64,000 nucleotides of DNA from a virus (lineage: Duplodnaviria; Heunggongvirae; Uroviricota; Caudoviricetes). Both the position numbers and the translations under genes were made by a program. Within the stretch, counting starts at the first letter, position 1. Every line of letters begins with the position of its first letter. Positions 1 to 61,413 of the stretch are shown here, piece after piece. The stretch is taken from IMG/VR virus record IMGVR_UViG_2617270980_000003; one strand, given 5' to 3'. The notes beneath the pieces are model-generated. The model made no database searches. It worked only from the letters and a program-made list of their open reading frames with translations, and had not been told where the DNA came from.

Positions 1-304
1 GCACGTTTTCGGTGAACGCACTCTGGCCACACTGGAGCGTCTTCTGAGCCTGCTGTCGGCCTTTGAGGTCGTGGTATGGATGACGGATGGCTGGCCGCTG
101 TATGAATCACGCCTGAAGGGAAAGCTGCACGTTATCAGCAAGCGTTACACTCAGCGCATTGAGCGACATAATCTGAATCTGAGACAACATCTGGCAAGGC
201 TGGGACGGAAGTCGCTGTCGTTCTCAAAATCGGTGGAGCTGCATGACAAGGTCATCGGGCATTATCTGAACATAAAACACTATCAGTAAGTTGGAGTCAC
301 TACC
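1..304 (+). mobile_element. IS1 insertion sequence, partial (right end only; rest lies left of the window)
   Basis: Frame from base 2 reads [95 protein letters not shown], which matches the InsB C-terminus as recalled; IS1-type terminus ...GTTGGAGTCACTACC ends at ~304. Confidence 0.9.
2..289 (+). CDS. insB: IS1 transposase InsB, C-terminal fragment (5' end outside window)
   Basis: Open frame from window edge to TAA at 287-289; sequence identity to InsB C-terminus as recalled. Confidence 0.9.
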
Positions 305-502
305 CAGTAACTCCGGGTATGAACTGCGCAATACACCAGTCCGGTTATATACAGCCCAGACAGTTCTTTTTATTCTGGCAGCAATATCCTTAACCGGGGT
401 GGATGAATAAAGCGCAATCAGCAGCGCATCTTCTTCAGGTGTCCACGGACGGACATGAGCGGGGGCGCGACCTTTTAGTCCCATGGGTTGTAATTTCATC
501 AT
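305..502 (-). pseudogene. Mu-like early gene (HTH-like protein) truncated at its 3' end by IS1
   Basis: ORF 224..502 begins MMKLQPMGLKGRAPAHVRPWTPEEDALLIALYSSTPVKDIAARIKRTVWAVYNRTGVLRSSYPELLG and then runs into reverse-complemented IS1 terminus; native C-terminus lost. Confidence 0.5.
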
Positions 503-505
503 GCA

Positions 506-1021
506 TCACCCCCTGACTCGCTTTTCAGCAGCATAAAACTCATCAGACAGTATTTCGGTCATTTTCTGTTTTGCGGGTTTTACGCCGCACTGAAGGTAAA
601 TCACATCGTCAACGCAGAACCACTTCACAGGGCCAAACAGGATTGCCGAGAAATCAATACCCAACCAGAACAACAGCGCATCGGTTCTGGCATACGTGAC
701 GGGCGAATATTCACGCCACAGACTGTTCAGTTCATCAGAGGCAACACGCAGGGTTTTAGGGATACGTGATGTGCGCGGTGTGCAGCTCCAGCCATTCGAC
801 GCAGTCGGTTTTCGCCATAAGTCGCGATGAAAAGGATATTTGTCCTCCGTAAAACGCAGTCCCTTAAAGTAAAATCCACTGATACCGGATACAAATACCG
901 ACCGGCACGCAACATTCAGCACGGCCTCAAGGCGTTTTGCCTCATCCTTAACTTTCTGGCAGTCCTGCTGGTATTTTTGCCACGCAGCCAGCGCGGAAGG
1001 GTTTGATGTTTTAAAGAACAT
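506..1021 (-). CDS. hypothetical protein, Mu-like early region
   Basis: 171-aa ORF abutting neighbouring ORFs on the same strand; no recognised motif. Confidence 0.45.
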   Translation of the reverse strand: MFFKTSNPSALAAWQKYQQDCQKVKDEAKRLEAVLNVACRSVFVSGISGFYFKGLRFTEDKYPFHRDLWRKPTASNGWSCTPRTSRIPKTLRVASDELNSLWREYSPVTYARTDALLFWLGIDFSAILFGPVKWFCVDDVIYLQCGVKPAKQKMTEILSDEFYAAEKRVRG

Positions 1022-1554
1022 TACGCCACCTCCGCAGATATCCCGGCAGGCGCTGCTGTCCGGTCAACAATCAGGTAGCGCAGAACATGTTCAGTGATAT
1101 TCCAGCCGCTTAAACCGCAGATAATGACGCCCAGGCGTATGTCGATATACGCCATCACAAACTGGGGCACGCCTTCTTTCATGGCCTGCTCATCAACTTC
1201 AGCCACCACATAAACGGTTTCACAGGTCAGAACGCCCTGAGCAAATTCCCACGCCATCGACGGAATATCATGCCCCTCAATCCATGGCAGGGATTTTCTG
1301 AAGCCGCACCACTGAACATCATCAGCCGCAGATTCCTGGCTGCATTTGCGACGAACCGGCTGCACCGGGCGGGGGCGCGGAATATCATAAAAACCGTTAC
1401 ATTCCGTCAGCACGCCTGCATCAACCGCATCACGCAGAAAATAAACCATGGAGGATGGCGGCATATTCATTTTTTCAGCCAGTACACCGCAGGTCAGGCG
1501 GCCATAAATACACAGCCAGTTTTTAACCCCTTCAAGCACTTTTGCATCAATCAT
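1021..1554 (-). CDS. hypothetical protein, Mu-like early region
   Basis: 177-aa ORF immediately downstream of gam, same strand; no recognised motif. Confidence 0.45.
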   Translation of the reverse strand: MIDAKVLEGVKNWLCIYGRLTCGVLAEKMNMPPSSMVYFLRDAVDAGVLTECNGFYDIPRPRPVQPVRRKCSQESAADDVQWCGFRKSLPWIEGHDIPSMAWEFAQGVLTCETVYVVAEVDEQAMKEGVPQFVMAYIDIRLGVIICGLSGWNITEHVLRYLIVDRTAAPAGISAEVA

Positions 1555-1699
1555 GATTTATTTCCCCACCACATTATTAATGACGATATAAACGTATTTC
1601 ATATTTCTTAACCCTTATTTTCTGTTTTCAGGCGCAAGCAGTCCCCTGACGCGAGCGCCATAATTAAAATGAAGTGATATTTAATTGATTAATGTGGTG

Positions 1700-2230
1700 T
1701 TATTTATTCAGTCCGGCGTCCTGTTCAAAAGGCTCGACATAAAAACTTTCAGCGCCTTTATTCACCTTGATACCGGCAATGCCTTTCACAGCATCCGGCT
1801 CCGCCAGGACGGCTTCCTTGTTCACTTCCTCTTTCGTGCGGATGAAACGCTCAAGCCCCATACGGCGCAGCATTTCAATCACACCTTCCACATCACGGCT
1901 GACGCTGCATGATGGCGTTCCCAGCCGCCATGACACCGTTCCGGTGGTCAGATTGGCTGTTTTGGTTTTGCCGCCGTTCGTCAGCTCATCACGGTTGGTT
2001 TTGCACCAGTCCTGAATCCCTTTAAAAAGCACTTTGATTTGCTTTTTAAGATTTTCAATCTGCGGCGTATAACGGGCGGTGATTTCTGCCACTTCGTCAT
2101 TCATCGCCGTTTCCAGGCGCAGCGCCTCTCGCTGAATATCTCCCAGGGTGCGGATATCACGGCTGACTTCTTCCCGGGTCTGCGGTGCCGCCTCGGCTGC
2201 GGCCTTTAATTTTGTAACGCGTTTAGCCAT
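1700..2230 (-). CDS. gam: Gam-like host-nuclease inhibitor (Mu Gam / Ku-like DNA-end binding protein)
   Basis: 176 aa; MAKRVTKLKAAAEAAPQTREEV...LRLETAMNDEVAEI...CKTNRDELTNGGKTKTANLTTGTVSWR...FIRTKEEVNKEA closely parallels Mu Gam as recalled; same length class. Confidence 0.85.
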   Translation of the reverse strand: MAKRVTKLKAAAEAAPQTREEVSRDIRTLGDIQREALRLETAMNDEVAEITARYTPQIENLKKQIKVLFKGIQDWCKTNRDELTNGGKTKTANLTTGTVSWRLGTPSCSVSRDVEGVIEMLRRMGLERFIRTKEEVNKEAVLAEPDAVKGIAGIKVNKGAESFYVEPFEQDAGLNK

Positions 2231-2241
2231 TTTGTTTTTCC

Positions 2242-2562
2242 TTATTGCAGTGTGCCTGATGCTTTATGCACGCGGTGGCGTTTAATGATGGCATCCGCTC
2301 CAAAAGACTGTGCAGATGCCTGAAATTCCGCTGAGAGAAACTGAATAATTGCAGGACTGTGATACTGGAGAATACTTGCATAAACGTCACAGAGTGACGT
2401 CGGCCTGTTATCCGTATCACGTTCTGTTTTCACATCCACTCCAATCTTTTCATGCACTTCAACACAGTCATTGCCTGCCAACTTTTCGTCATGCGAAACA
2501 TGATTAAATTCAAAAATAACGCGTACTTTGCTCATGGAATTACCCCTGTTGATTAAATTCAT
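2242..2562 (-). CDS. hypothetical small protein (paralogue of 2540..2812)
   Basis: Begins MSKVRVIFEF..., similar N-terminus to adjacent ORF MSKVVRIIFEY...; tandem pair in Mu-like semi-essential early region. Confidence 0.45.
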   Translation of the reverse strand: MNLINRGNSMSKVRVIFEFNHVSHDEKLAGNDCVEVHEKIGVDVKTERDTDNRPTSLCDVYASILQYHSPAIIQFLSAEFQASAQSFGADAIIKRHRVHKASGTLQ

Positions 2563-2812
2563 TACCGTTAATAACCCCGGAAGCCATGCCTCTGTCTTTC
2601 ATGAATGCACTGGCTTTCATTGCCACAAACTCTGCGAAGTTTCTGCTTTCTGCCAGCATAACCACCCCAAAAATCATGGCGGGTCCATTATCTTTCTTCT
2701 TTATTCCGGTTGAACGTATATCCAGACTTACCCCTCTGTGCGTGCTGCCATCAGAGTTTTTGCAGATAACATCTTCCTTGTATTCGAAAATAATGCGTAC
2801 GACTTTACTCAT
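2540..2812 (-). CDS. hypothetical small protein (paralogue of 2242..2562)
   Basis: 90-aa ORF, N-terminus MSKVVRIIFEYKEDV; position between B and gam. Confidence 0.45.
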   Translation of the reverse strand: MSKVVRIIFEYKEDVICKNSDGSTHRGVSLDIRSTGIKKKDNGPAMIFGVVMLAESRNFAEFVAMKASAFMKDRGMASGVINGNEFNQQG

Positions 2813-3090
2813 CCTCTGGTCCTCGTTCTGTTTGGATAACTGACCCGGCGTCTAACCTCACGGCAGAACCGAATCATGGCATTAAAGGCTTCTTCCTCCG
2901 TCACCGCTTCCGGTATCCCCGGAACCAGTAACTGCTCCTGTTCATCACGTCCATGACGCGCCATAACCTCAATCACATGCCGTACCGTGGCAGGCTTTCC
3001 GGCAACTATCGGCAATGCACCTTCCGGCAGGACGTAACCAAACTCAATAAGACCACTCGACCACGCCCATGCAATGAGATTTTTTTTCAC
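2809..3090 (-). CDS. hypothetical protein, Mu-like early region
   Basis: 93-aa ORF, stop/start overlap with neighbours. Confidence 0.4.
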   Translation of the reverse strand: MKKNLIAWAWSSGLIEFGYVLPEGALPIVAGKPATVRHVIEVMARHGRDEQEQLLVPGIPEAVTEEEAFNAMIRFCREVRRRVSYPNRTRTRG

Positions 3091-3091
3091 C

Positions 3092-3358
3092 TCACACCTC
3101 CCAGTAAACCGTGCAGCCGCTGATGCGGGTGGCCTTCACACGGCGGCGCAGGCCGTTGGTCTGTATGGTGATTTCAATTTCACCGGTTCCCTGCACGTTG
3201 CCTACCGGCGGCGTGGTTTTCAGTGCAAAACGTTGCGGATAGCGCTTACTGCGTTCCAGTACCGCACCGGCAAGTTCGGTCAGACGGCGCGCGCTGTTCA
3301 GGGAGTCGAATAAATTCATTTTGTTACCGCAGGATTGCATATTCATATAACACCTCAT
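3092..3358 (-). CDS. hypothetical protein, Mu-like early region
   Basis: 88-aa ORF in tight array downstream of B. Confidence 0.4.
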   Translation of the reverse strand: MRCYMNMQSCGNKMNLFDSLNSARRLTELAGAVLERSKRYPQRFALKTTPPVGNVQGTGEIEITIQTNGLRRRVKATRISGCTVYWEV

Positions 3359-3586
3359 TTAGCTGACTTGTTTCGCACCAACAGAACGGCATATTCCGCT
3401 GTAAACTTCTGTCGCACCTTCGCGATCAAGTCCGGCAGATATCACCATTCGTGTGCGGTCATTAAATTCAAAAAGTAAATCGCCACATTCTTTATTTTCG
3501 GCCAGTGAAATCACCTTCACGTTATCGAAATTAACCAGGTAAAAGCGTCCGTAAATATCAGGAATATTAAATACCGCCATAATCAC
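3359..3586 (-). CDS. hypothetical protein, Mu-like early region (kil position)
   Basis: 75-aa ORF overlapping the stop of B by 4 nt; position corresponds to kil in Mu, but no sequence evidence. Confidence 0.4.
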   Translation of the reverse strand: MIMAVFNIPDIYGRFYLVNFDNVKVISLAENKECGDLLFEFNDRTRMVISAGLDREGATEVYSGICRSVGAKQVS

Positions 3587-4524
3587 ACCTGTGAGAGTAA
3601 TTCAGGGTTGGTATAAACCTCTTTAAAGGCCGCATTAATATGTTTTTCTGTCAGCGCCGCGCCTTCACCGCTGGCGGTGAGCCACGCCTGGTTAAGCGTA
3701 TGTGTCAGAACGCGTAACGCTCCCGGCTTTTCAGCGATAGCCTGCATGACGGCCAGCTCGGCCTCACCACTGATCCCCCACGCCATGGCAATGGCCAGCA
3801 CATCCGCCTTTTTGGCCTTGCGAAGTTGTTTTGTACGGGCAAGACGGCTGAACAGGCGCGATAAATCACCAAAGGCGCGGCGTCCACCTTTAAACAATCC
3901 GCGCGGGTTACCAATAAGCACCATCCCGATCCCCGTGGCGTCCTGAATTGCCCGGAGTTGCTCCAGACCGTCAATACCAAGATGATCCGCCTCATCCACA
4001 ATCACCAGTCCACGCGTTCCCATCAGGCGACGGCGGATGGCGCGGGATAATGCCCCTTTGTTCGCGCGGGTGTAATCAATCCCCAGCGCATCGGCCAGCT
4101 CCAGCAGACACTCCGTGACGCTGGAGTGCGCGGGTGACAGGGTGATCATCCAGGTGTTTGGTTGCTCCTGGCAGTAATTACGGGCAGTGGCCGTTTTACC
4201 CACACCCGGTACGCCCACAATAACGTTAATACAGCCCATCAGGCGAACCGCCTGAAACAGTGCGCGCAGCTCCTGGACTGTCTGAGTTTCCACAAACTGC
4301 GGCGGTTCCGGCAGTGCGCTTTGTTTATTCCAGTTCTCATACCAGGAGCGCAGGGAAGCAGCCACAGCAGCGTTATCGCCTTTATATTTTCCCTTACGGA
4401 AAGCCGATAATGTGCCGTCGGAAATTCCCGCCTCTCTGGCGATGGCATACTGCGTCAGTACGCCGCCATCAATAAGTTCATCAATGGTCTTGATTACATC
4501 GTTAATATCGGTCATATTATTCAC
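3583..4524 (-). CDS. Mu B-like transposition target-DNA activator (AAA+ ATPase)
   Basis: 313 aa; Walker A GVPGVGKTATARNY, Walker B LVIVDEADHL; ...LPEPPQFVETQTV... and C-terminal ...KPGALRVLTHTL... parallel Mu B as recalled. Confidence 0.9.
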   Translation of the reverse strand: MNNMTDINDVIKTIDELIDGGVLTQYAIAREAGISDGTLSAFRKGKYKGDNAAVAASLRSWYENWNKQSALPEPPQFVETQTVQELRALFQAVRLMGCINVIVGVPGVGKTATARNYCQEQPNTWMITLSPAHSSVTECLLELADALGIDYTRANKGALSRAIRRRLMGTRGLVIVDEADHLGIDGLEQLRAIQDATGIGMVLIGNPRGLFKGGRRAFGDLSRLFSRLARTKQLRKAKKADVLAIAMAWGISGEAELAVMQAIAEKPGALRVLTHTLNQAWLTASGEGAALTEKHINAAFKEVYTNPELLSQV

Positions 4525-4597
4525 CTCGCTTGAGACAGCATTCTCCGAGACTGAAACCTCAAATAACCTGAGTCACCCCTCGGGTTATTTTTTTATT

Positions 4598-6685
4598 TCA
4601 GGCCAGCGGATCACTTTCTTTTAATTTCGCTTCGAGCAGTTGCAATCCCCGCTGGAAATTACGCTCGTATTCTTCATCAGGTTCATCGTCAGCGACCGGT
4701 TGCTGAACGGTCACCGTATTACCCACAGGGCGGTATATGTTTTCCAGCCAGGGCTCCTGCGGCTTGTGCTCCAGCACGTTGACAACCTCATCCTCGGCAT
4801 CACGGATTTTTTCCTCTGCGCGTTTACGCATGCCTTTAAGGCGCTGCTGCTGTTTGTAGTATTCCGCGCTGACAGGGAAGGCTTCGCGTTTATTGCCGTC
4901 CCATACCGCCTCGCAAATCACGCTGCCATCCGGGCGGCGCACGGTAATTCGTTCGGCATCATGAATGTCATAGCTGATAAGTACCTTACGGCCATGCTCG
5001 TCACGCAGCTCGGGCGCGTAGTAAATATTATTCAGCCAGCGTATTTCACAGCGTCTTACAGGGCGCTCCACCATCGGCCGGAACATATCCCGCAGTTCAA
5101 CATCGGACAGCCATTCAATTTCCGTGTCCTCTTCCGCCAGGCGTTTTTTTCTGAACTCCGCCGGGCTGTAATGTTTACCGTTCGGCTTCATGGGTAATTC
5201 ATCGTGCGGCCGGTTGTTGTACCACTCAACACCGTCACGAATGGCATCAATCAGTTCAGACCAGGACGGTAAATCACGCATCGCTGACTGCTGCCGGGCG
5301 TTCAGCCGTTTGCCCTGTTGCAGGGCACTGAATGCCGAGCGTAAATCGCGGTTGGTTTTACGTAACGTCTCGCGATCTGCTCCTTTCCCGAAATAGGTGC
5401 GGTATTTACGGGCTATGCGCATCGGTAATGTGCGGTTAAGCCGTTCGATAATGCCCCGTCCCTGCGGATTACCGGCAATCCCTGTCGGGTGATTAATCCC
5501 CAGTCGTGGCAGTATCCCCACAATCTCCTTATCCAGGACGTCGGCGGTTTCCCCGGAGCCATTATCCGAGTAATACAGAAACGGTTTGCCATGATGGCGA
5601 ATACCGTGCTGTATGGCACCGGCTACGGCGAAAACATTTTCAGCCAGGTCAAGGCTCCAGCCCACCACAAAGCGCGTGCCACCGTCGATAACAAAGGTCA
5701 CTTCCGGTGCGAATGGCCGCCCGTGAACCGGGTGCGCGCATTTCAGCTTCATGCCGTGACCGTCACCAATCCAGACATAATTCACCGGCATTTTTGACCA
5801 GTCGCGGCGCGTGAATCCCTCAAGCTGGCGGTATTCACTGCCGGTAACCCGTCCTTTTTGTTTCACCACTTCCGGCAGTTTCTTCATTGCGCGGCGAATG
5901 GTGTCATAAGACGGCATGATATCGAGCATATAAGGCTCATCAGCGTGCCGGTGCTGCCATTCGGCAACAAAATCCTCGTAAGCCTCGGTCATTGGTCGGC
6001 CGTTTGACTGGCGATACTGCGCCAGAAATTCGGGCAACCAGTTAATATCTTCGGCTTTTATTTCCTGGCGTTTACCTGGTGCCAGCAAAAGCAGGCGTTC
6101 AGCAGCGTTCTGTGCCTTATTAAAGGCCGCAATCCAGCGTTTCAGCGTGATTTCACTCAACACGCGACTGTTTCCCTTTCTGGCGTTCGCTATCTCAACC
6201 ATTGCCACAATGCGCTCATCCAGTTGCGAGTGTGACAGGCGGTCAACGATGAACCGGATAGCTTTAGCGCAGCTGAAACCGGGTTGTTGCGTGAATTTCA
6301 GCACCTCACTGACGATCGCAATGCGTGCGTCTGCCACCTGGCGCTGGTTTTCAGTCAGGGCATTGAGGCGTTCGACCATCAGTTGTGGTGATCCGCGATA
6401 TGCCTCCACCGCATCAACCACGGCAGACGAGCGTCTGGCCTTTGTCACCACCGGAGCCGGTGATTCATCGGCTTTTTGCGTCATCAGTTGCAGGGCATAA
6501 CGTTCGCGTAATGCCTGCTGTGTCACTTCAGGTAAACAGTCAATGCTGTATTCAAAACCTTTAGCGCCTTTCTTGCGGCGTCTGCTGGTTTCGCTGGTTG
6601 CATACTTCCTGATTGAATAGCGAACGCCTTGCTCCGTTCCCGGCATCCCCGGTAATCCAACCAGTTCTTTGACTGAAGCAAACAT
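4598..6685 (-). CDS. Mu A-like DDE transposase
   Basis: 695 aa; WIGDGH motif in DDE core, ...GSVICEAVWDG... region and acidic C-terminal tail resemble MuA architecture; sits between ner and B. Confidence 0.9.
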   Translation of the reverse strand: MFASVKELVGLPGMPGTEQGVRYSIRKYATSETSRRRKKGAKGFEYSIDCLPEVTQQALRERYALQLMTQKADESPAPVVTKARRSSAVVDAVEAYRGSPQLMVERLNALTENQRQVADARIAIVSEVLKFTQQPGFSCAKAIRFIVDRLSHSQLDERIVAMVEIANARKGNSRVLSEITLKRWIAAFNKAQNAAERLLLLAPGKRQEIKAEDINWLPEFLAQYRQSNGRPMTEAYEDFVAEWQHRHADEPYMLDIMPSYDTIRRAMKKLPEVVKQKGRVTGSEYRQLEGFTRRDWSKMPVNYVWIGDGHGMKLKCAHPVHGRPFAPEVTFVIDGGTRFVVGWSLDLAENVFAVAGAIQHGIRHHGKPFLYYSDNGSGETADVLDKEIVGILPRLGINHPTGIAGNPQGRGIIERLNRTLPMRIARKYRTYFGKGADRETLRKTNRDLRSAFSALQQGKRLNARQQSAMRDLPSWSELIDAIRDGVEWYNNRPHDELPMKPNGKHYSPAEFRKKRLAEEDTEIEWLSDVELRDMFRPMVERPVRRCEIRWLNNIYYAPELRDEHGRKVLISYDIHDAERITVRRPDGSVICEAVWDGNKREAFPVSAEYYKQQQRLKGMRKRAEEKIRDAEDEVVNVLEHKPQEPWLENIYRPVGNTVTVQQPVADDEPDEEYERNFQRGLQLLEAKLKESDPLA

Positions 6686-6687
6686 AA

Positions 6688-6918
6688 TTACGCGACCTTA
6701 CGAATGTAGCGGCTGGGCCAAATCTCCTCGGGCGGCACCCCCAGGCATTCCGCGATAATCCCCTCATACTTGGGAACATGGCGGTATACCGCGTTGTACA
6801 GATTGTTCTGACCCACGCCAGCTTTACGGGCCAGCGCCCTCATGCTTCCTTCTCTGGCTCTGACTTCCCCCAAAATTCTTTGAGGATGCCAATCAGGCTT
6901 AACTTCATTTCTCGCCAT
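6688..6918 (-). CDS. ner: Ner-like DNA-binding regulator (Ner/Nlp family)
   Basis: 76 aa; ...DWHPQRILGEVRAREGSMRALARKAGVGQNNLYNAV...EIWPSRY matches the Ner/Nlp signature as recalled; immediately upstream of transposase. Confidence 0.8.
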   Translation of the reverse strand: MARNEVKPDWHPQRILGEVRAREGSMRALARKAGVGQNNLYNAVYRHVPKYEGIIAECLGVPPEEIWPSRYIRKVA

Positions 6919-6946
6919 GATTCATCTATCCTAAAAAGTTACGAAA

Positions 6947-6972
6947 TTTGATAACTAAACTTAGTTATCAAG
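6947..6972. promoter_or_regulatory. Operator-like palindrome in the divergent c/ner control region
   Basis: TTTGATAACTAAAC/TTAGTTATCAAG inverted repeat (perfect core GATAACTAA-ac-TTAGTTATC) ~30 bp upstream of ner start. Confidence 0.5.
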
Positions 6973-7102
6973 TTTGATATAAGTATTGATCCACCTCTGC
7001 TTCATGTAAAGCAAAAAAACATCTTTCTTTTGTCTATTGTGGATCAATGGTTGCTGACAACACTAAAAGTTAATAATTTCAAATTGATAGGAAGAAAAGA
7101 AA

Positions 7103-7648
7103 ATGAACAAGCAAACAACAACATCTCTTTCTTTTCCTGGTGGTAGAAAAGAAAGCATTGCTGAGCGTCTGAAAAGGCTGATTGGCTCCCGCAGCGTCAG
7201 AGCTGCAGCAAGAGATTGGGGGCTTTCATTTTCAACACTAAACAATTATCTGTCTCGTGGCACTGAGCCATCCTTAAGTGTCGCCCTTCAGATTGCGTCT
7301 ATCGAAGGAGTAAGTGTTGAGTGGCTATGTGGATTCAGTGATGCATCACAAGTGAATCGGTGTGAGATCAAGGAAAATCAAGATGAAAGCAAGAAGATAA
7401 TTATGACGATTATCAGCGCACTTGATGAAAAAGACTTAGAGCAGCTATCGAAAAATTTGGTTCTGAATGGAGCCAAGTACTTAGCTCGGTTGTTAGAGCC
7501 TGAAAATCAAGATCTAATCCGCTTAGAAGGAAGGAAAAGAATAGCTGCATTACAGCTTGAAGGTATGTCTGACGAACGCGTCAGAGAGATTTTGGAAGAA
7601 ACTGAGAGAAGTCGCAAATCTAACGCGGTAGAACCAAAAGCGGGTTAA
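7103..7648 (+). CDS. Phage repressor, HTH XRE family (c-repressor position of Mu-like phage)
   Basis: 181 aa; N-terminal HTH ...SIAERLKRLIGSRSVRAAARDWGLSFSTLNNYLSRGTEPSLSVALQIASIEGVSVEWLCGF; divergent from ner-A-B. Confidence 0.7.
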   Translation: MNKQTTTSLSFPGGRKESIAERLKRLIGSRSVRAAARDWGLSFSTLNNYLSRGTEPSLSVALQIASIEGVSVEWLCGFSDASQVNRCEIKENQDESKKIIMTIISALDEKDLEQLSKNLVLNGAKYLARLLEPENQDLIRLEGRKRIAALQLEGMSDERVREILEETERSRKSNAVEPKAG

Positions 7649-7720
7649 TAGCATTAGCCCGCATTTTGCACTATATCGAGTATTTCGCATTGTTTGGAAC
7701 GCCTTAAAAGACTAAAACCA

Positions 7721-7884
7721 CAGTATCAAATGAGTTGCCGATTTTATAATAAATGACTAATTATTGCACAATCGGTATCAAATAGACCTTATCCGCACAT
7801 CTAGCCATCACCTGTTTTATTTCAGTATCTTACAGGTGATTTCACCTCCTTTCACTAAAACCCTTGTCGGTATCAAATGATTCA
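7721..7884 (-). repeat. Mu-like prophage left terminus with three repeated putative transposase-binding sites
   Basis: Plus-strand motifs CAGTATCAAATGAG (7721), CGGTATCAAATAG (7773), CGGTATCAAATGA (7868); palindrome GGTGAAATCACC at ~7835; minus strand reads ...TGAATCATTTGATACCG starting at 7884. Confidence 0.55.
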
Positions 7885-9621
7885 CCTGGTTATAATACTC
7901 ACGCAGCGGAACAGGCGCTGGCGCAGCGTCGGCAGCTTCAGCCCCCACACGCTGTATCCGGCAACGCCGTCAGGAACACGGCTAACTTTCACCTTCACGC
8001 CGTCGGTGACGGACTGAACCTCCACGCTGACCGGATTGCCACTTCCGTCAACCAGGCTTATCAGCCTGGTGCCGGAGGATGGCAGCGTGATTTCACGGTC
8101 GAGCGTCAGCGTCCGGGTCTGGCTGTTTACCGCCAGCACGCGCCCGCCGATGCTGATACCGGCATAGTCATCATCACAGATTTCAATGACATCACCCGGC
8201 ACATGGCGAAGCCCTTCTGCGCCCACGCTGAAGTCCACGGTCTGCGTTTCCAGCAGTTCTGTTTTAATCAGCCACAGCCCGGCGCGGTGTGCCTGCCCCC
8301 GGCTGGTACAGCCAAAAGCATCCATCTTCGTGACGTTACGACCGTAACGGGCAATGGCCTGCGTATCCTCCACAAGCTCTGTTGCCGTCTCCCAGCCGTT
8401 GTTCGGGTCAATCCAGTTCACCTCAACGGCATTATGGCGGTCTTTCAGGGCGCTAAAGCTGTAGCGGAACGGCGCGCCATCATCCGGCATCACCACATTA
8501 CTGCGGTTATAGGTCCACACCTTATCCGACGGTCGGTCCTGCACGAACGTCAGCGTCTGCCCGTTCCATACCGGCATACAGCGCATCGCCGAGCAGAAAT
8601 CACTGAGCACATCCCACGCCTTGCGCTGTGTGGTCAGGTACGCATTACAGGTGATGCGCGGCTCCGTACCGCCAAAACCGTCCGGCACTGACTGGTCGCA
8701 GTACTGGCCGATGACATACAGCGCCCATTTATCCACATCCGCCACACCAAGACGTTTCCCCATGCCGTAGCGTGGATGGGTCAGCATATCCCACAGACAC
8801 CAGGCCATGTTATTGCTGTATGCTGGCTTAAACGTTCCGTCCCAGATACCGCTGTATTGCCGCGTCTGCGGGTTATAGTTCGACGGCACCTGCAGAATAC
8901 GCCCGCGCAGATGATAATTACGGCTCACCTGCTGGCTGCCGAACTGCTCCGAATCCACCTGCACGCCGACCAGTGCCGTGTTCGGGTAGCACTGTTTCAC
9001 ATCGATGATTTCGGTGTATGACGACCAGAGCGTTTTGTTCTGCAGCTGGTCTGTGGTGCTGTCCGGTGTCATCCTGCGCATCCGGATATTGAACGGGCGC
9101 GGCGGCAGGTTATCCACCACCACCGAGGCCAGATACTGCGACGTGGTTTTGCCCTTAATGGTGATGTCTTTTTCTGTCACCCAGCCACCGTTACGTTGTA
9201 TCTGAACCAGCAGGCGGACTTCCGACGGATTCCGGTCACCCTTTGAGGTGGTTTCCACCAGTGCCTGCACACCGAAGGTAAAGCGCAGACGGTCGATGTT
9301 TGCAGACGTGATGGTCCGGGTGATCGGCGTGTCGTATTTCACTTCCGTACCCAGCACCGTCTCGGAACCGGAGGATTCAAATCCCTCCGGCGGTGTCTGC
9401 TCCTGCTCACCTGCCCGGAACACCACCGTGACACCGGAGATGTTGGTATTCCCCTCACTGTCCAGCACCGGTGTACTGTTCAGCAGCACGCTTTTTAATC
9501 CATCCACCGGACCTTCAACCGGCCCTTCGCTGATGGCATCGATCACACTCAGTAACTGCGTGGATTTCAGGTTATCCTTCGCTTCGCGCGGGGTATGCCC
9601 CTTACTGCTGCCTTTACCCAT
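7882..9621 (-). pseudogene. J: Lambda J-like central tail fibre / host-specificity gene, 3'-truncated by the Mu-like insertion
   Basis: 579-aa ORF starting MGKGSSKGHTPREAKDNLKSTQLLSVIDAISEGP..., near-identical to lambda J N-terminus as recalled (J ~1130 aa); frame ends ...LRQRLFRCVSIITR* at the junction. Confidence 0.85.
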
Positions 9622-9680: not shown

Positions 9681-10328
9681 TCAGCGACCAATCACCACAA
9701 CCTGACCACCATCCCCTTCGTCTGCCGTGCTGATCTCCTGAGAGACCACCCGCGACCCCACGCGCATTTCACCGTACAGAACGGGCAGAACATTGCCCTG
9801 GGCAACCATGTTATCCAGTGAGGAGAAATAGGTGTTCTGTTTGCCGTTATCTGTACTTGCTGCCGTGGGCGTCCTGGCTTTCGGTGCCAGCATCTGCGCC
9901 ACTCCGCCCAGGATCATACTGGCCCCTGCCGCATACATGCCCGATACAGCCGCGGCACCCAGCCAGCCCACAGGGTTCCACCATGCCACCGCAATCAGCG
10001 CCGCCCCCAGCACCACCTGAAACACACCGCCACTTTTAGCTCCCGCCAGACGCGGCACGATGTGGATCACGGCACCATTTGCCAGCGGCTCATTAAGACG
10101 GGCAGACAATTCGGTTTCACCTGCATCACGCCCGGCAATGCGTACCTGGTACCAGCCGTCGCTCAGTTTCTGACGAAACGCCGGGATCTGCATGGCCAGC
10201 GCCCGGATGGCTTCGGACCCCGTTTTCACTCGAAGGTCGATGCGGCGGCCAAATCGTTGTAAATCCCCGTAAAGGCAGATGCGTGCCATGCCCGGTGACG
10301 CCAGAGGGAGTGTGTGCGTCGCTGCCAT
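9681..10328 (-). CDS. I: Lambda I-like tail assembly protein
   Basis: 215 aa, lambda-order position between K and J; hydrophobic Gly/Ala-rich middle region. Confidence 0.8.
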   Translation of the reverse strand: MAATHTLPLASPGMARICLYGDLQRFGRRIDLRVKTGSEAIRALAMQIPAFRQKLSDGWYQVRIAGRDAGETELSARLNEPLANGAVIHIVPRLAGAKSGGVFQVVLGAALIAVAWWNPVGWLGAAAVSGMYAAGASMILGGVAQMLAPKARTPTAASTDNGKQNTYFSSLDNMVAQGNVLPVLYGEMRVGSRVVSQEISTADEGDGGQVVVIGR

Positions 10329-10978
10329 TTGTCGGTGTACCTCTCTCGTTTGCTCAGTTGTTCAGGAATATGGTGCAGCAGCTCGCCGTCACCACAGTAA
10401 ATGGCGGCATGATTCGGCACCGATGAACCAAAACAGCACAGCAGCACATCGCCCGGCTGCGCCGCTGACAACGGCACCTGATACAGCCCTGTGGCCTCCA
10501 GATTATCCAGATAGAGATTCTGACCGTTACGCCACCAGTCATCCTCGCGATGAAAATCCGGCATCTCAATCCCCGCCAGATGGTAAGCATCCCGGAACAG
10601 CGTGTAACAGTCCGTCACCCCGTGCTCAAAGCGCCGCCCGGAAAGATGTGGCACACAGCGGAACTTGTGAATCGCCCCCCGGCAAACCAGCCACCACGGC
10701 AAATCACTCTGCACCTGCAGCCGCCGGTCGGTCTCACTCAGCCAGGGCAGACCACCGGGGTGGCTGTGGACCAGCGCCACAATCTCACCCTGCATCTCTG
10801 CCCGCAGCCAGTCCTCCGGCGACATCCGGAAATACTCCTCCGGCTCACCGGAGATATTCACGCAGGGAAAATATCTTTCCCCCTCCGGTGTTCTCACCAC
10901 GAAGCCGCACGACTCCGCTGGCGCACATCGCCGGGCGTGCGCCAGAATCGCTGATTCTGTCTCTGTCATGGGATTCAC
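10226..10978 (-). CDS. K: Lambda K-like tail assembly protein (MPN/JAB + NlpC/P60-like)
   Basis: Contains ...IVALVHSHPGG... JAB-type motif; position between L and I. Track start probably too far upstream. Confidence 0.8.
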   Translation of the reverse strand: MNPMTETESAILAHARRCAPAESCGFVVRTPEGERYFPCVNISGEPEEYFRMSPEDWLRAEMQGEIVALVHSHPGGLPWLSETDRRLQVQSDLPWWLVCRGAIHKFRCVPHLSGRRFEHGVTDCYTLFRDAYHLAGIEMPDFHREDDWWRNGQNLYLDNLEATGLYQVPLSAAQPGDVLLCCFGSSVPNHAAIYCGDGELLHHIPEQLSKRERYTDKWQRRTHSLWRHRAWHASAFTGIYNDLAAASTFE

Positions 10979-11673
10979 TGCGAAAGTTTGTTAATGGAAA
11001 GGAAGCCGCCAAAGTTGCCGACGTTATTGCGAAACTTACAGCCGCTCAGGCATTTGCTGCATTTATCCTTCGTGATATCGGAGGTCGGCTGGTCATATTC
11101 ATCCGCGACCGCCGGACCGTGATAACCGCACTCATCACCGCGATAGGTCCAGGTGCAGGTATTAGCCAGCATGATGCGCCCCGGAAAAACAGCGCCGTCC
11201 GTTTCCGTCGGCGTGGACAGTACAAAAGAGGCACTCACCGCGCTCAGTTCGCTGCACTGCTCGATGCGCCAGCGGCTGATCACCTCCTGCTCCGGATCGG
11301 CGTCACTGTTTCCGTTGACGAAGTTCACCGCATCCAGAAAACGGGCGTAAACCTTACGCCGGACCACCGTTCCTCCGACCAGACTCTGCAGGTCTTCCGC
11401 CATCCCGGTGACCATGCCGTGCAGGTTAGAAACCGTCAGTGTCGGACGGGCAGCACTGCCTTTGCCGTTCAGTTCAAATCCCGTCCCCTGAATGGGATAC
11501 GCCTGATACTGTCGCCTCTGCCAGGTGACCGGCTCACCTTTATCGTTCTGCTCATTACAGAAAAAATAACGTTCTCCACCGACCACTGTCAGATCGATTT
11601 CCCAGAGCACCACCTGGGCTGACTGAGTGAGGAGTGTCGTCTCATGATGTGTTTCCTGTGGAATATCCTGCAT
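10975..11673 (-). CDS. L: Lambda L-like minor tail protein
   Basis: 232 aa; Cys-rich C-terminus; position between M and K. Confidence 0.8.
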   Translation of the reverse strand: MQDIPQETHHETTLLTQSAQVVLWEIDLTVVGGERYFFCNEQNDKGEPVTWQRRQYQAYPIQGTGFELNGKGSAARPTLTVSNLHGMVTGMAEDLQSLVGGTVVRRKVYARFLDAVNFVNGNSDADPEQEVISRWRIEQCSELSAVSASFVLSTPTETDGAVFPGRIMLANTCTWTYRGDECGYHGPAVADEYDQPTSDITKDKCSKCLSGCKFRNNVGNFGGFLSINKLSQ

Positions 11674-26381: not shown

Positions 26382-26630
26382 TCATATAGTCAAACTTAAC
26401 TGATCGCGTCCATAGTGCGAAGCGGGAAAGACACCTGCGGGAATAAAGTCAGGCGCTAATTTATCGCGCCGCTCACGCTTGGTGACAATTTTTTCAACAC
26501 TGTTAAGCGTTGTGAATGACAAGCCGCATTCCATATTCTGGCACTGATGGTATTGGCGAATCGTTACTTCACTAAGAGGCTTACTGGTGCGAGTGCGGGC
26601 CGTAGCGCCGCAGTGTGGGCATTTGAACAT
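26382..26630 (-). CDS. ogr: Ogr/Delta-family zinc-finger late-gene transcription activator
   Basis: MFKCPHCGA...RYHQCQNMECGLSF with four-Cys pattern, as in P2 Ogr (recalled); located at prophage end next to D. Confidence 0.85.
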   Translation of the reverse strand: MFKCPHCGATARTRTSKPLSEVTIRQYHQCQNMECGLSFTTLNSVEKIVTKRERRDKLAPDFIPAGVFPASHYGRDQLSLTI

Positions 26631-33744: not shown

Positions 33745-34782
33745 ATGATTGTCCTTAGAATTTTTGTAAGTAAAATAACCACAATTTTTCCTAATTGCGC
33801 GACTAGACTCTATATGAAAAACCTTTCCTCAATTGATTACGCAAAACTTTTCTTTGCGTTTTGTATCATTTTTATACACACAGACATTTTAGGCGGCAAC
33901 AGTAATTATATAGGATATGTTACTTGCCAGGGACTGCTAAGGATTGCAGTGCCATTCTTTTTCATTACTAGTGGATATTTTTATTTTTCTGTAATGCAAA
34001 AAAATAAAATTAAAAAATGGTTTTCTCACAATATAAAAACCTATGCTCTATGGACGCTTCTTTACTTACCAATAATACTAGGATTAGTTGGTTTTATTAG
34101 GGCGGGTAAGCCTTTAGCGACAGACCTTACATATTTATCTCTAAATGCAGTATTTGGATTTTGGCACTTATGGTTTTTCCCTGCCCTGATAGTATCGGCA
34201 TTATTAACATTACTTTTAGCTAAGCTAAAAGATCGCACATTAATAATCATATGCTGCATACTTTATACGTGCGGCACGTTACTTCAATATCGCGCAAATT
34301 ATTCCATTGACATAAATCGTGACATATGGTCTCTCGCTACAGTTTTCTTTTCCAGAAACGGTCTTTTCATGGGTTTTCCATTGTTTATGCTTGGATACCT
34401 TATAAATAAAAATAACATAAGAAATAACAATACATATTTACTCATTGGTTCCATTATTTTGGTCATCATTGAGGCATCCGTAAATTATTCATATGGCACA
34501 TATACCTTTGATATGCTTTTTTCACTTCCATTCGCTGGTGTTTTTGTTTTTTTAAAAGTTCTAGATATCACCCTGAAAACAAAAAACACCTTCACAATTC
34601 GCGAGCACTCAAAAAACATATATCTTATACAAATCTATGCCATTCAGTTTGCAAAACAATTTGCATCTGATTGGTTAGTCATAACAACAATCGCATGCAC
34701 TATTTGCATTAGCTATTCAATAGCTAATATCATTAAAGATAATTTAATTGCAAACTTTAGACTAAAAAGCCTATCAAATTAA
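33745..34782 (+). CDS. Acyltransferase family 3 (OafA/Oac-like) integral membrane protein; probable start ATG 33814
   Basis: Strongly hydrophobic multi-span protein; ...IDYAKLFFAFCIIFIHTD... N-terminal signature; region looks AT-rich by eye; sits between U and G. Confidence 0.7.
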   Translation: MIVLRIFVSKITTIFPNCATRLYMKNLSSIDYAKLFFAFCIIFIHTDILGGNSNYIGYVTCQGLLRIAVPFFFITSGYFYFSVMQKNKIKKWFSHNIKTYALWTLLYLPIILGLVGFIRAGKPLATDLTYLSLNAVFGFWHLWFFPALIVSALLTLLLAKLKDRTLIIICCILYTCGTLLQYRANYSIDINRDIWSLATVFFSRNGLFMGFPLFMLGYLINKNNIRNNNTYLLIGSIILVIIEASVNYSYGTYTFDMLFSLPFAGVFVFLKVLDITLKTKNTFTIREHSKNIYLIQIYAIQFAKQFASDWLVITTIACTICISYSIANIIKDNLIANFRLKSLSN

Positions 34783-48307: not shown

Positions 48308-49657
48308 ATGCGATTGACCGCTCCTGTTAAAGCGTTCTCAGATGGTTTTAGTACAGCAGATGACATATTTGGACGTAAAAAACTTCATGACATCATCATG
48401 CGGGTAGCAACAAATGCCCCAGATAAAAGTCTTGTACTTGCGCTCAATGATGAATGGGGTAACGGAAAAACCTCATTTGTAAAAATGATGTCATCAGAAA
48501 TAAATAAAAACCATGCTGACAACTTTGACGTTATTTACTTTGACGCTTTTGAAAATGACTATCAATCAGACCCATTTGTAGCCTTAACATCAAAAATTTA
48601 TTCACTCATAAAAAAAGAAGATGGAAAGCTTAAAAACCTCGGGAAAGAGTTATTATCCATTGGTAAAAAACTAGGCGCGTCATTCGCACTTAATGGTGCA
48701 AAATTTGCCGTAAGCACTTTCACAAGTGGATTAGTCTCAGGTAACGCACTGGAGAAAGCAAGTGATGCCATCAGTGACTCTCTCACATCACCTATTGAAG
48801 AGTACATTGAAGAAAAAATAAAAACGAGCGAGAGTGAGTTAGCAACAATTGAGCAATTTAGAGCATTGCTGACCAAGATTCACACTGAGTGTGGGAAAAA
48901 AATAATATTTATAATTGATGAGCTAGACAGGTCGCGACCTGATTTTTCCCTTGACTTGCTAGAGAAAATAAAACATATATTTTCAGTGGAAGGTTTTGTT
49001 TTCTTACTAGTAGTTAACCGTGAGCAGTTTGAAAAAAGTATAGAGTGTAGATATGGGAGCATAAATACAAGATTATATTTAAATAAATTTATTCATTATT
49101 GGTTTACTCTTCCTAAAAAAAGTATGCTCTCAGTAGGCTGCCGAGCAGGCTATGAACGTTCAACGTTAACACAATATCTCCTGTCGTTAGATCAAGGGAA
49201 TGACATACTGATTCGGAATGGTTCTCTCGTAAAAACCCTCGCGTATCTTCTAGAAATGAATAACTGTTCACTGCGAGAGGCTGAGCGTTGCTATTCAACA
49301 TTCGCAATAATGAACGACCCCAGCGAAGTAAATTCCTACCGACATGAAATATTTCATGTTGCCATCGCACTAGTTGCTTTCTTGAAAATATTCAACCAAT
49401 CCTTACTCATGGAAATATTAAACAAAAAACTGACAGAAGATGAGATATTTAAACGATTATCAATTCCTGTAAACCTTGTCGATGTTTCTGAGATTTATTA
49501 TATTGCAATATTGTTAAAATACCACTTAGCCACCGATGAAGAACTACGTTCCTCTGATATGCTCACTGAGTACGCATTCATGGCTGTAATACCTGGACAA
49601 CGAGTCAAATGGTTTGAAATGATGTATGAGAAGATCGAAGGCTTTGATATTAACTGA
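48308..49657 (+). CDS. KAP-family P-loop NTPase (cargo gene in P2 old/tin hotspot)
   Basis: 449 aa; Walker A NDEWGNGKTSF, Walker B IIFIIDELDRSRPD, hydrophobic stretch between them; AT-rich by eye. Confidence 0.75.
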   Translation: MRLTAPVKAFSDGFSTADDIFGRKKLHDIIMRVATNAPDKSLVLALNDEWGNGKTSFVKMMSSEINKNHADNFDVIYFDAFENDYQSDPFVALTSKIYSLIKKEDGKLKNLGKELLSIGKKLGASFALNGAKFAVSTFTSGLVSGNALEKASDAISDSLTSPIEEYIEEKIKTSESELATIEQFRALLTKIHTECGKKIIFIIDELDRSRPDFSLDLLEKIKHIFSVEGFVFLLVVNREQFEKSIECRYGSINTRLYLNKFIHYWFTLPKKSMLSVGCRAGYERSTLTQYLLSLDQGNDILIRNGSLVKTLAYLLEMNNCSLREAERCYSTFAIMNDPSEVNSYRHEIFHVAIALVAFLKIFNQSLLMEILNKKLTEDEIFKRLSIPVNLVDVSEIYYIAILLKYHLATDEELRSSDMLTEYAFMAVIPGQRVKWFEMMYEKIEGFDIN

Positions 49658-49718
49658 TAAGCCATATTATCTTTTATCTCTATTTTGAAGCAATAAAACT
49701 AGAAGTAAACTCTAAAAA

Positions 49719-49740
49719 GCCGCCAATCCCGGCGGTCTTT
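49719..49740 (+). terminator. Rho-independent terminator after the KAP NTPase gene
   Basis: CCGCC-aatccc-GGCGG hairpin followed by TCTTT. Confidence 0.45.
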
Positions 49741-49936
49741 GAAGGGCATTACAATTTCGTGGCGCTCAGTTATACATGGATTCTTAGCAAGGACCAAGCC
49801 GCGACACACTACATTGTAGCTCCCCGCTATGTGATTTGAAGTTGCTGGCAATCAAAAAATGCTCCCTTTAGTACCACTAATTTTGTAGAGTATGGTTAAC
49901 TTTGAAAAGTTGTAATACGTCAACTAAGGAACAGCG

Positions 49937-51088
49937 ATGTCATCAGAAAAAACAATAGAACGTTTCGTTGCAGCAGATGTTAGCGGTGCAATCTGGTTAC
50001 GATTAAAACGATTAATGAGTGCGCAGCTCTGTAAGAAAATAATAGAAAATAATCATCCGTCATTGCAAGAGGATGTATTGATTAAAAAATCCATTGGAAT
50101 GTCCTCCGCAATACGAAGTGCAATCGGATATTGGGAGACTGAAAATGGCGGACTCAATTCAAAAATTTTATCCAGATATTATGCATTATTACAGATAAGC
50201 TTAGCTGAACAAATATCATCAGGGGATCCTAACGACGATTTAAAAAATGTTCAAAAGCATACGGTTTCAGGTCATGGGCTATTCACACAATCTGTTGAAA
50301 ATGAAACATTCCCAGACAATATAAAAATAGGCTGTCTTAAAAGTGGACATTTTTATTCATATGCAAAGCATATAGGAATTGATATCAAACAGTATGCAAC
50401 AGAAAGACGTCCAAAAAAAGATGAAGATTTAGACCCATCACGCACCTATTCTTTAACTGATTTATTAAAACGAATTCCAGAATTAAGACCGCTTTTACAA
50501 GAAACTTTCGGTGAAGATCCACTTTCATTCCAAATTGGACAAGCAAGTAGAAACATGCTCTTAAGATCAAGGAATCAGTCACTCGGTGGCCTATCGCGTC
50601 CTAAACCAGAGTTCTCAGGTTTTACATATGCCGCAATTTATCCCAAAGGTAGCGATGTAACAGCAGAAGAGCTTAATTCTTACAACATTGGAATAAAAAA
50701 CATTGAAATTGAGTCAGAAGAAAACCTCACAAAATATGACCAACCATATTTTGTAGGAGAAGTCCATCACCCTGAAGATGAGCTATGGTGGGATTATGTC
50801 ACGACACACAAATCTGGTTATTGTGGAACGAGTGTAATTGTCCCATTTTGGGGAACTCAAGATCCCTTTGTATTACACTTAGTCGTATTATATACATTAA
50901 GCATTATAGTCAGGTATCTCCCTGACACTTGGTATGAGATTGAGCATGGCAAACTTGATTATATTAATTCCCTTTTGGAAAATTATTTAGCTATTTTTGA
51001 TAGTGTACTGCCTAAACTTGCGGTTGAAAGATTAACGAAAGTTCATTTGGTAGTAACAGCACCCGATAGCATGAATTCCCCTATCTAA
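49937..51088 (+). CDS. Hypothetical protein (second cargo gene in hotspot), no recognisable domain
   Basis: 383-aa ORF, AT-rich, own upstream region; C-terminal hydrophobic segment PFVLHLVVLYTLSIIVRYL. Confidence 0.6.
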   Translation: MSSEKTIERFVAADVSGAIWLRLKRLMSAQLCKKIIENNHPSLQEDVLIKKSIGMSSAIRSAIGYWETENGGLNSKILSRYYALLQISLAEQISSGDPNDDLKNVQKHTVSGHGLFTQSVENETFPDNIKIGCLKSGHFYSYAKHIGIDIKQYATERRPKKDEDLDPSRTYSLTDLLKRIPELRPLLQETFGEDPLSFQIGQASRNMLLRSRNQSLGGLSRPKPEFSGFTYAAIYPKGSDVTAEELNSYNIGIKNIEIESEENLTKYDQPYFVGEVHHPEDELWWDYVTTHKSGYCGTSVIVPFWGTQDPFVLHLVVLYTLSIIVRYLPDTWYEIEHGKLDYINSLLENYLAIFDSVLPKLAVERLTKVHLVVTAPDSMNSPI

Positions 51089-51157: not shown

Positions 51158-51469
51158 TCAATCATCATCTTGGTCATCCCCAGTGTCGCGAACGCATGAT
51201 TTTGACTCAAAGTATTTTTTTTCCGCAGCGGTAATCAGGGCTTGGTGTTCAGGGAAATCACGAAACACGTCTACTGCGGGCCATTCAATTTTCGTCACAA
51301 CCAACTTAGGCCTACTTTCCACCTCAGCTTCATCCTGGCTGATATAATGACTTTTTGACTCACGTTCCTCATGCGAAGATTCTCGATAATAGAGCCAATT
51401 TTGATAGTCAGCTTCCCGTTCATAATCATCAAAGTACTTGCCCACGCTTCCCCCCATTAATGAGCGCAA
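51158..51469 (-). CDS. Hypothetical acidic small protein downstream of A (overlaps A 3' end)
   Basis: 103-aa ORF with C-terminal ...DTGDDQDDD; may be spurious. Confidence 0.3.
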   Translation of the reverse strand: MRSLMGGSVGKYFDDYEREADYQNWLYYRESSHEERESKSHYISQDEAEVESRPKLVVTKIEWPAVDVFRDFPEHQALITAAEKKYFESKSCVRDTGDDQDDD

Positions 51470-58222: not shown

Positions 58223-58526
58223 TTTATAGCGGCTTTCAGTGGCTTTATGTGGTGCTCAAACCCGCATTACACCGCTGAAAGCCCGTATATCAAAGGGCTA
58301 CCAACGCCCCCGATGGAGCCTTCATTTTCACTTTCTTAAATCTAACGATAGACGGCTAACATTTAAGTATTGTGAAATATTATCAAATGTAATCATCATT
58401 GATTTACAAAAGATACATTTTGCCCCGAAAGGATTCCTGTCAGAAACATCAAAAGATGATGTTCTATACTGAGAACCATGGCAACACGGGCATCTAAAGT
58501 GAATATGGTTTGTAATATTTTCTACC

Positions 58527-61223: not shown

Positions 61224-61413
61224 AGCCTCACCTCCGCAGATAACGGATGGTGTACACGGTTTGGTTCGAAGAAGGAAAGAAGTTACATTAGCGTAAGGCC
61301 CGAACATCTATTCAAAAAGAAAAACGCCAGCAATTATTCTGGCGTAGCTAAAAATATCGTATAATCTTACACTTCAAAAAATAACTTTATAAAATGCCAT
61401 CACATCATATCTT

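Follow-up and report, generated by a model that had tools for sequence, protein, structure and literature searches.

The stretch analysed here, hereafter the window, is a 64,000-nucleotide Caudoviricetes record of IMG/VR (IMGVR_UViG_2617270980_000003). Near its start, between the 3' part of an IS1 copy and the 5' part of a lambda-type gene J, lies a block of thirteen reading frames (positions 305-7894) in which only the last, the immunity repressor gene, is not on the minus strand (Table 1). All frames are full length, with the exception of a SANT/Myb-like gene broken by IS1. Their order and orientations are those of Mu, with a repressor gene divergent from a ner-A-B early operon at the left end. 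A first-pass annotation, made from the sequence alone, had proposed a Mu-like transposition module consisting of repressor, Ner, A, B and Gam, and all five are indeed present, intact and backed by Pfam, PHROG or PDB matches. Taken together with the comparisons below, the block is very probably the left (immunity and early) end of a transposable Mu-like prophage of the Sp18 type.

Table 1. Positions of the Mu-like element, its control and terminal sequences, and the interrupted sequences on either side.
Feature	Position	Strand	Description
IS1, 3' part	1..304	+	InsB C-terminal part and right inverted repeat, ...GGAGTCACTACC at 304; Pfam DDE_Tnp_IS1 on the contig-end reading frame
Broken SANT/Myb-like early gene	305..502	-	First 66 of 183 codons; residues 1-66 of WP_000977058.1
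Mu gp12 homologue, 171 residues	506..1021	-	55% identical to Mu gp12; Pfam Phage_Mu_Gp12; phrog_2314
Mu gp11 homologue, 177 residues	1021..1554	-	Pfam Gp11_C E 5.7e-41; 68% identical to Mu gp11
Gam, 176 residues	1700..2230	-	Predicted DNA-end protection and host nuclease inhibition; Pfam Phage_Mu_Gam E 5.5e-42; 57% identical to Mu Gam
Five small early genes	2242..3586	-	2242-2562, 2540-2812, 2809-3090, 3092-3358, 3359-3586
B, 313 residues	3583..4524	-	Predicted AAA+ target-DNA activator; Walker A at residue 104, Walker B at 174
A, 695 residues	4598..6685	-	Predicted DDE transposase; MuA I-alpha-like N-terminal domain, D308/D374/E414, Mu-transpos_C at 532-592
Ner-type regulator, 76 residues	6688..6918	-	Pfam HTH_35 E 1e-21; PDB 1neq (Mu Ner) E 3.7e-13; 45% identical to Mu Ner
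Palindrome just upstream of ner	6944..6975		AAATTTGATAACTAA-2 nt-TTAGTTATCAAGTTT, 15-nt arms; candidate Ner operator
Promoter-like site into ner-A-B	6982..7048	-	TTTACA-17-AATACT (7010 to 6982), inside a 10-bp inverted repeat
Inverted repeat bracketing the promoter-like site	6985-6994 / 7039-7048		ATTGATCCAC / GTGGATCAAT; candidate repressor operator
Immunity repressor, 181 residues	7103..7648	+	XRE/Cro-CI-type helix-turn-helix (~17-83) joined to a Mu-c-like C-terminal domain (97-181)
Putative transposase-binding repeats	7721..7879	-	YATTTGATACYG; L3 7721-7732, L2 7773-7784, L1 7868-7879; three exact copies in a 160-bp stretch
Left terminus of the element	7890..7894		...GGTTATA at 7894; inward 5'-TATAACCAGG; point of divergence of seven insertions, with the J alignment picking up at 7895
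Lambda-type gene J (tail tip protein), 5' part	7895..9621	-	Cut after codon 576; NCBIfam lambda_TipJ, 1312 bits
Right end of Sp18-type element	outside the window		TATAGCGCGGCGATTTTTTTGATACCG

Extent and termini of the element

Positions 305-7894 were compared by megablast with 5,426 complete Escherichia coli genomes. The block is 99.6% identical over 7,590 nucleotides to the left end of complete 38.6-kb Mu-like prophages, each of which sits between the halves of an interrupted host gene. In strain HH35, for example, the prophage lies inside a diguanylate cyclase gene and carries complete Mu-type head, tail, lysis, Mor, invertase and Com genes; its A differs from that of the window at 9 of 695 residues and its B at 1 of 310. 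RefSeq also annotates a 'tRNA-OTHER' in the HH35 prophage, between the virion morphogenesis and minor head genes, a region outside the window. Nothing was found that contradicts the Mu-like identification of the block.

A transposase with an ATPase partner could in principle belong to a non-phage Mu-type transposon of the Tn552- or Tn7-like kind, which pairs a DDE transposase with an AAA+ protein. The catalytic core of A does resemble the retroviral-integrase/IS3 type more than MuA by sequence, and the Mu-transpos_C domain is also found in TnsB-type transposases. Nevertheless, such a transposon is effectively refuted by the near-identity of the block to the left end of 38.6-kb prophages with head, tail and lysis sets. 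Ner, Kil, Gam, gp11 and gp12 are moreover Mu-specific early genes, and infectious relatives exist, such as Yersinia phage vB_YpM_5. We therefore regard this explanation as extremely improbable.

The first-pass annotation delimited the element as 305-7884. Its left edge holds, while the right boundary was placed within 10 bases of the true one, which is set at 7894 by the megablast alignments to complete prophages and by seven independent insertion junctions. Each of these aligned junctions lies in a host gene of its own, and the point of divergence is one and the same base throughout, following ...CACCTGGTTATA or, in one case, ...GGTTACA. Read inward from 7894, the sequence is 5'-TATAACCAGGTGAATCATTTGATACCGA. 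The window terminus and five of the six relatives compared read 5'-TATAACC; left termini reading 5'-TGTAACC are found in Sp18, JNE141411 and Mu_JNE082796, and right ends read 5'-TATAGCG.

The three repeats L1, L2 and L3 lie 16-27, 111-122 and 163-174 nucleotides from the terminus, respectively, which is essentially the spacing of the L1, L2 and L3 sites in Mu attL. One more exact match to YATTTGATACYG occurs elsewhere in the window, at 20308. Complete relatives carry three copies of this repeat in close succession at their right ends, an end that the window does not contain.

Flanking genes were compared across eight genomes and were different in every one: J, a MASE1-domain gene, a PilZ-domain gene, RHS, xdhA, csiR, a type I restriction endonuclease gene and sorM. 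Eight unrelated sites reflect transposition rather than site-specific integration. For the window copy, of which a single end is present, the expected target duplication is ATAC.

Transposition proteins and relatives

Predicted transposase A matches Mu-transpos_C (E 2e-17) and HTH_Tnp_Mu_1 (E 1.6e-8) in Pfam, phrog_310 (E 3.6e-211) and, at its N-terminus, the MuA I-alpha domain (PDB 1tns, E 6.8e-6). Two of its acidic residues, D308 and D374, align with the catalytic D269 and D336 of MuA. In an alignment with Rous sarcoma virus (RSV) integrase, the stretch SDNGSG...GNPQGRGIIERLNRTL falls on the region from D121 to E157, with D374 and E414 in the positions of these two residues. The catalytic triad is assigned to D308, D374 and E414. 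A global pairwise alignment of A with MuA had instead put the glutamate at R429; this placement was rejected as incorrect in favour of E414. The triad and the Mu-transpos_C match bear out the earlier description of A as a DDE core with a Mu-like C-terminus.

B carries the Walker A motif GVPGVGKT and the Walker B motif VIVDEADH, and matches Phage-MuB_C (E 7.8e-25) and AAA_22 (E 4.4e-18) in Pfam as well as full-length MuB (PDB 8xvb, E 4.6e-84 over residues 7-305). The clear Walker motifs and the likeness to Mu B noted in the first pass are thus confirmed. That annotation had also staked its reading on A and B clustering with transposable-phage proteins, and they do: B shares 48% of its residues with MuB, and A shares 93% with A of Sp18, the Mu-like prophage of E. 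coli O157:H7 Sakai.

The remaining early genes point the same way. Among the five small ones, PHROG matches range from E 1e-38 to 1e-54, and the same genes are annotated in complete relatives; the frame at 2809-3090 belongs to phrog_1518 ('host nuclease inhibitor') and that at 3092-3358 is Kil-like (Pfam Kil_protein). The full-length form of the SANT/Myb-like protein matches phrog_323.

Identity to Sp18 is 99% for B and Gam, 98% for gp11 and 94% for gp12, and falls to 42% for the repressor and 43% for Ner. The element is an Sp18-family phage with a different immunity module, whose protein occurs in identical form in RefSeq genomes (WP_001041872.1). Sp18 and its relatives (for example Phi804-3 and the Mu-like phages of Shiga toxin-producing E. 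coli (STEC) of CC119, Mu_JNE082796) share with the window copy the gene order, the terminal sequence AACCAGGTGAATCATTTGATACC and the binding repeats, and Sp18 inserts in the same way at variable sites, including inside prophages. Apart from its immunity module, Sp18 differs in having a left terminus of 5'-TG rather than 5'-TA, and the window copy is interrupted by IS1 after 7.6 kb. The closest deposited phage sequences are Mu-like inserts in two Shiga toxin (Stx) phages, at 93.6% and 93.4% DNA identity, followed by Yersinia vB_YpM_5 and vB_YpM_6, Pseudomonas phage VW-6B and D3112/DMS3.

The distinct Mu-like lineage suspected in the first pass is indeed distinct from Mu and D108 (Muvirus), and corresponds to the already described Sp18 group. 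Sp18 itself has been described as an apparently intact Mu-like prophage that was neither circularised nor induced by mitomycin C (PMC2669165). Related prophages occupy strain-specific sites (PMC7430833), and in CC119 STEC six of ten such phages reside inside other mobile elements, including Stx phages, with Sp18-like phages inserting at variable loci (PMC10132054); in the deposited records, both the Mu-like insert and a 4-bp duplication are marked. A Mu-like phage inside a lambdoid prophage is accordingly a known situation. Many E. coli genomes have annotated Sp18-type prophages, and insertion of these into other prophages has been published, so that the locus offers little in the way of discovery. 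In E. coli OkiPb01714, another Mu-like prophage occupies a lambdoid TipJ gene at a different position; its repressor is 26% identical to that of the window and its Ner is different.

With Mu and D108 the element shares the order c - ner - A - B - kil ... gam - gp11 - gp12, the I-alpha enhancer-binding domain of A, three attL sites spaced as L1/L2/L3 and a homologous repressor C-terminal domain; protein identity to Mu is highest for gp11, followed by Gam, gp12, B and Ner (Table 1). It differs in the consensus of its binding sites and in the extra SANT/Myb-like gene, as well as in the sequence of A, the DNA-binding domain of the repressor and the target duplication, which are considered below. 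The two Yersinia phages, isolated as virions and filed under Muvirus, are 81% identical at the DNA level over the core of the A gene and have a repressor 52.5% identical over its full length, but they come from another host genus and show no nucleotide match outside the A-gene core. As isolated virions, they indicate that the lineage has infectious members. A is 47% identical to its counterpart in VW-6B and about 30% identical to those of the D3112 group, over about 90% of its length. VW-6B and D3112/DMS3 are siphoviruses with unrelated late genes (PMC5977238).

Several points weigh against the reading as a Mu-like prophage of the Sp18 type, or limit it. Identity between A and MuA is 22.6%, and A is by sequence closer to the D3112/VW-6B type than to Mu. 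Searching PDB with A by phmmer did not reach the MuA core and retrieved the 76-residue I-alpha domain only. Compared with the strict Mu form, 5'-TG...CA-3', the window copy ends in ...TA-3' instead of ...CA-3'; the termini of the lineage read 5'-T(A/G)TA, which implies that a terminal TA is tolerated where Mu has CA. Target duplications in three complete relatives are 4 bp long (TAAA in Sp18, CGTA in HH35 and GATG in Mu_JNE082796) and not 5 bp as in Mu; a 5-bp duplication with shifted termini was considered and rejected, as all three fit 4 bp only. The operator assignments proposed in the next section draw on a handful of relatives. Finally, the remainder of the element (~31 kb, with the right end), if it survives, would lie beyond IS1 and may be on another contig.

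The immunity repressor and its control region

The repressor matches phrog_3037 at E 4.5e-60 and combines two domains of different affinity. At its N-terminus, the Pfam helix-turn-helix (HTH) family HTH_3 matches at E 2e-4, just under the Pfam cut-off (21.8 versus 23 bits). Within the repressor family the signal is stronger: HTH_3 is matched by six of eight members (best E 4e-9) and Phage_CI_repr by five of eight (best E 1.6e-9). A profile of the family finds XRE-type structures (best E 6.6e-5), with the 434 repressor, CylR2 and P2 C matching more weakly (E 0.005-0.07). The N-terminus therefore belongs with XRE HTH families, and not with the winged helix that Mu c has in common with MuA.

The C-terminal half tells a different story. 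Residues 94-178 match phrog_7148 (E 1.2e-4), which is the family of Mu c, as Mu c itself matches it at E 6.9e-73; reciprocally, residues 90-185 of Mu c match phrog_3037 (E 1.1e-4). When eight relatives of the repressor were aligned by hhalign with Mu c and D108 c, residues 97-181 were paired with residues 102-196 of Mu c (91% probability, E 1.1e-6, 92 columns). BLASTP gave no match between Mu c and the repressor, and only profile methods reveal this C-terminal kinship. The reciprocal profile matches identify the region as the counterpart of the Mu c C-terminal oligomerisation/regulatory domain. In Mu, this domain of c serves oligomerisation and protease sensitivity, and the winged helix is shared with the transposase. 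The first-pass annotation had called the repressor XRE-type rather than Mu-c-like; the first half of this statement stands for the N-terminal domain, and the second half does not, as the C-terminal half is homologous to Mu c.

These matches are most simply read as the outcome of a domain exchange, in which a conserved Mu-type repressor scaffold received another DNA-binding domain, rather than as an unrelated protein. The repressors of VW-6B and of the D3112 group share only the N-terminal XRE HTH with that of the window, and in the D3112 group the C-terminal domain is a different one. A, on the other hand, has kept an I-alpha-type domain with recognisable similarity to the Mu c N-terminus (29% identity, E 9e-5). 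With an XRE HTH in the repressor and an I-alpha domain in A, the two proteins would no longer read operator and enhancer through homologous domains. We lean slightly towards the more general proposal that the repressor of the Sp18 lineage is a domain-swapped derivative of Mu c, in which an XRE HTH took the place of the winged helix, and that immunity and transposition are linked differently from Mu in this lineage, alongside its 4-bp duplications and its tolerance of a terminal TA. A chimeric repressor of this kind was not found stated in a narrow literature search. An XRE domain on a Mu-c-type C-terminal domain would uncouple DNA binding by the repressor from that of the transposase, which is one modest mechanistic point and modestly new.

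Searches of Pfam, NCBIfam and PHROGs found no S24 peptidase domain in the repressor. This agrees with the report that Sp18 is not induced by mitomycin C (PMC2669165).

The divergent region between the repressor gene and ner is 184 bp long and holds two candidate operators, the palindrome beside ner and the inverted repeat around the promoter-like site. The palindrome is kept in relatives that have the same Ner but other repressors, and is replaced where Ner differs. The second (distal) arm of the inverted repeat is kept only in combination with this repressor type. This pattern of conservation suggests that the palindrome is the operator of Ner and the inverted repeat that of the repressor.

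Which genes are present and intact, the terminus, the repeats and the two junctions can be read directly from the sequence; the operators are candidates, and how the region might work, with all activities, is drawn from the Mu paradigm. The repressor, read rightward, would silence the leftward early promoter by way of operators in the 184-bp region, and Ner would adjust this switch from the palindrome beside ner. Once repression is lifted, A would bind L1-L3 and their counterparts at the right end, cut one strand at the termini and link these to target DNA that the B ATPase captures and delivers. Gam would protect free DNA ends and Kil would block cell division. Because the part in the window has one end only, it cannot move alone; it could still give immunity to phages that share the repressor.

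IS1, the contig end and the host prophage

The right inverted repeat of IS1 ends ...AAGTTGGAGTCACTACC at 304. Positions 1-304 are 91.4% identical to an annotated IS1A and 91-96% identical across annotated IS1 copies. IS1 breaks the SANT/Myb-like gene after codon 66 of 183, with CAGTAACTC as candidate 9-bp target duplication, and the truncated open reading frame (224-502) runs on into IS1. An exact-sequence lookup of this frame returned JNMX01000022.1 (66,644 bp), JNLZ01000052.1 and one metagenome contig, all of which end inside IS1; position 1 of the window is the end of the draft contig JNMX01000022.1. Short-read assemblies break at IS1 copies. Since the contig stops inside IS1, a true truncation and a simple IS1 insertion look alike from the window, and the apparent 'truncation by IS' at its end marks an assembly boundary and is not evidence of deletion.

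Searches for the far side of IS1 were negative. The window contains neither a second IS1 copy nor another piece of a Mu-like genome. Used as an exact pattern, the IS1/Mu junction had no matches in species-representative genomes, a collection without the source genome, and neither this junction nor the Mu/J junction occurs in any of the 5,426 complete E. coli genomes. Among homologues of the full SANT/Myb-like protein, the only 100%-identical fragment stems from an independent IS1 insertion in another strain and is not the missing half. In that case (Logan SRR29904427, 10001-10306; left end ...GGDAANLLI), IS1 lies at about codon 94 of the same gene of a near-identical prophage, again at a contig end.

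Two histories can be proposed. If IS1 simply inserted, another contig of the same draft assembly (GCA_000700685.1) would carry what follows the 768-bp IS1, namely the late genes, the right end and then the 3' half of J, and the phage would have lost only its SANT/Myb-like gene and might still transpose. We give this an even chance. It fits a contig ending inside IS1, as short-read assemblies do, and retained genes that are intact, 99.6% identical to complete prophages and free of signs of decay. IS1 has also entered the same gene independently in another strain, and simple insertion is generally commoner than deletion mediated by an insertion sequence. However, no contig with the other junction was retrieved. 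Homologues likewise included no 100%-identical 3' fragment of the SANT/Myb-like gene, which counts weakly because such a fragment could hide in a 90%-identity cluster.

In a true truncation, by an IS1-mediated adjacent deletion or by recombination between IS1 copies, the late region, the right end and the distal part of J would be lost, and the element would be a one-ended, immobile remnant that still encodes the repressor, A and B. We hold this to be possible, at somewhat less than an even chance. Adjacent deletions are a known outcome of IS1 activity. The lambdoid prophage around the element has already undergone much rearrangement and harbours a P2-like prophage as well, and at least two assemblies and one metagenome contig share this fixed IS1 junction. 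Yet these observations fit a simple insertion equally, and A and B would be expected to decay without a right end, whereas no frameshifts are seen. The chances of insertion and deletion are thus roughly balanced, slightly in favour of simple insertion. Intact genes nearly identical to those of complete prophages are compatible with a recent insertion as well as with a recent deletion.

On the other side of the element, J matches lambda_TipJ only at positions 1-576 of 1163. It falls short of the full length of about 1,130-1,160 residues and is disrupted; the reading frame at 7882-9621 ends in four phage-derived codons. This cut places the element inside a lambdoid prophage, as the first-pass annotation had it. 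The host prophage is Qin-like: its late genes occupy about 24,600 to 7,895, with the terminase genes at the upper end and the 5' part of J at the lower; gnsB and ynfN come next and reach 26,283, and the prophage continues at 58,303 with the lysis genes rzpQ and rrrQ. In the order of events that we propose, a Mu-like phage would have transposed into gene J of this Qin/lambda-like prophage, and IS1 would later have inserted into the thirteenth gene of the newcomer, the SANT/Myb-like one. One lambdoid prophage thus holds two other phages, Mu-like and P2-like, of which the Mu-like one holds IS1, and the locus can serve as a worked example of nested mobile elements.

The P2-like prophage (~32 kb, ~26,284-58,302) lies between ynfN and ynfQ/cspI and runs from ogr (26382-26630) through tail and head genes and replication gene A (51429-54008) to an integrase gene (57209-58222). 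Its integration site is a hairpin-like sequence downstream of ynfN that is uninterrupted in E. coli CUPF06, and an imperfect copy of a short core, CCCGAAGG / CCCGATGG, marks either end. Low-GC cargo (36-41%) at 48,308-51,088 consists of a KAP-family P-loop NTPase matching PADLOC PDC-S20 (E 1.2e-74) and a YaaC-like protein (Pfam E 3.7e-20), and is probably anti-phage hotspot cargo. Another low-GC gene (33,745-34,782, 345 residues), in the P2-like tail region, has no PADLOC match; its counterpart in strain ES1 is annotated as acyltransferase family, and it may be an O-antigen-modifying moron.

Over the late genes of the lambdoid prophage, a proline- and arginine-rich frame of 447 residues (10,279-11,622, plus strand) runs antisense to tail genes K and L; it is almost certainly spurious, a product of GC-rich coding DNA. 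The reference lambdoid prophage of CUPF06 carries an IS1A downstream of essQ, at a place where the window is uninterrupted (~61,297-61,305), and shows how often IS1 strikes these prophages.

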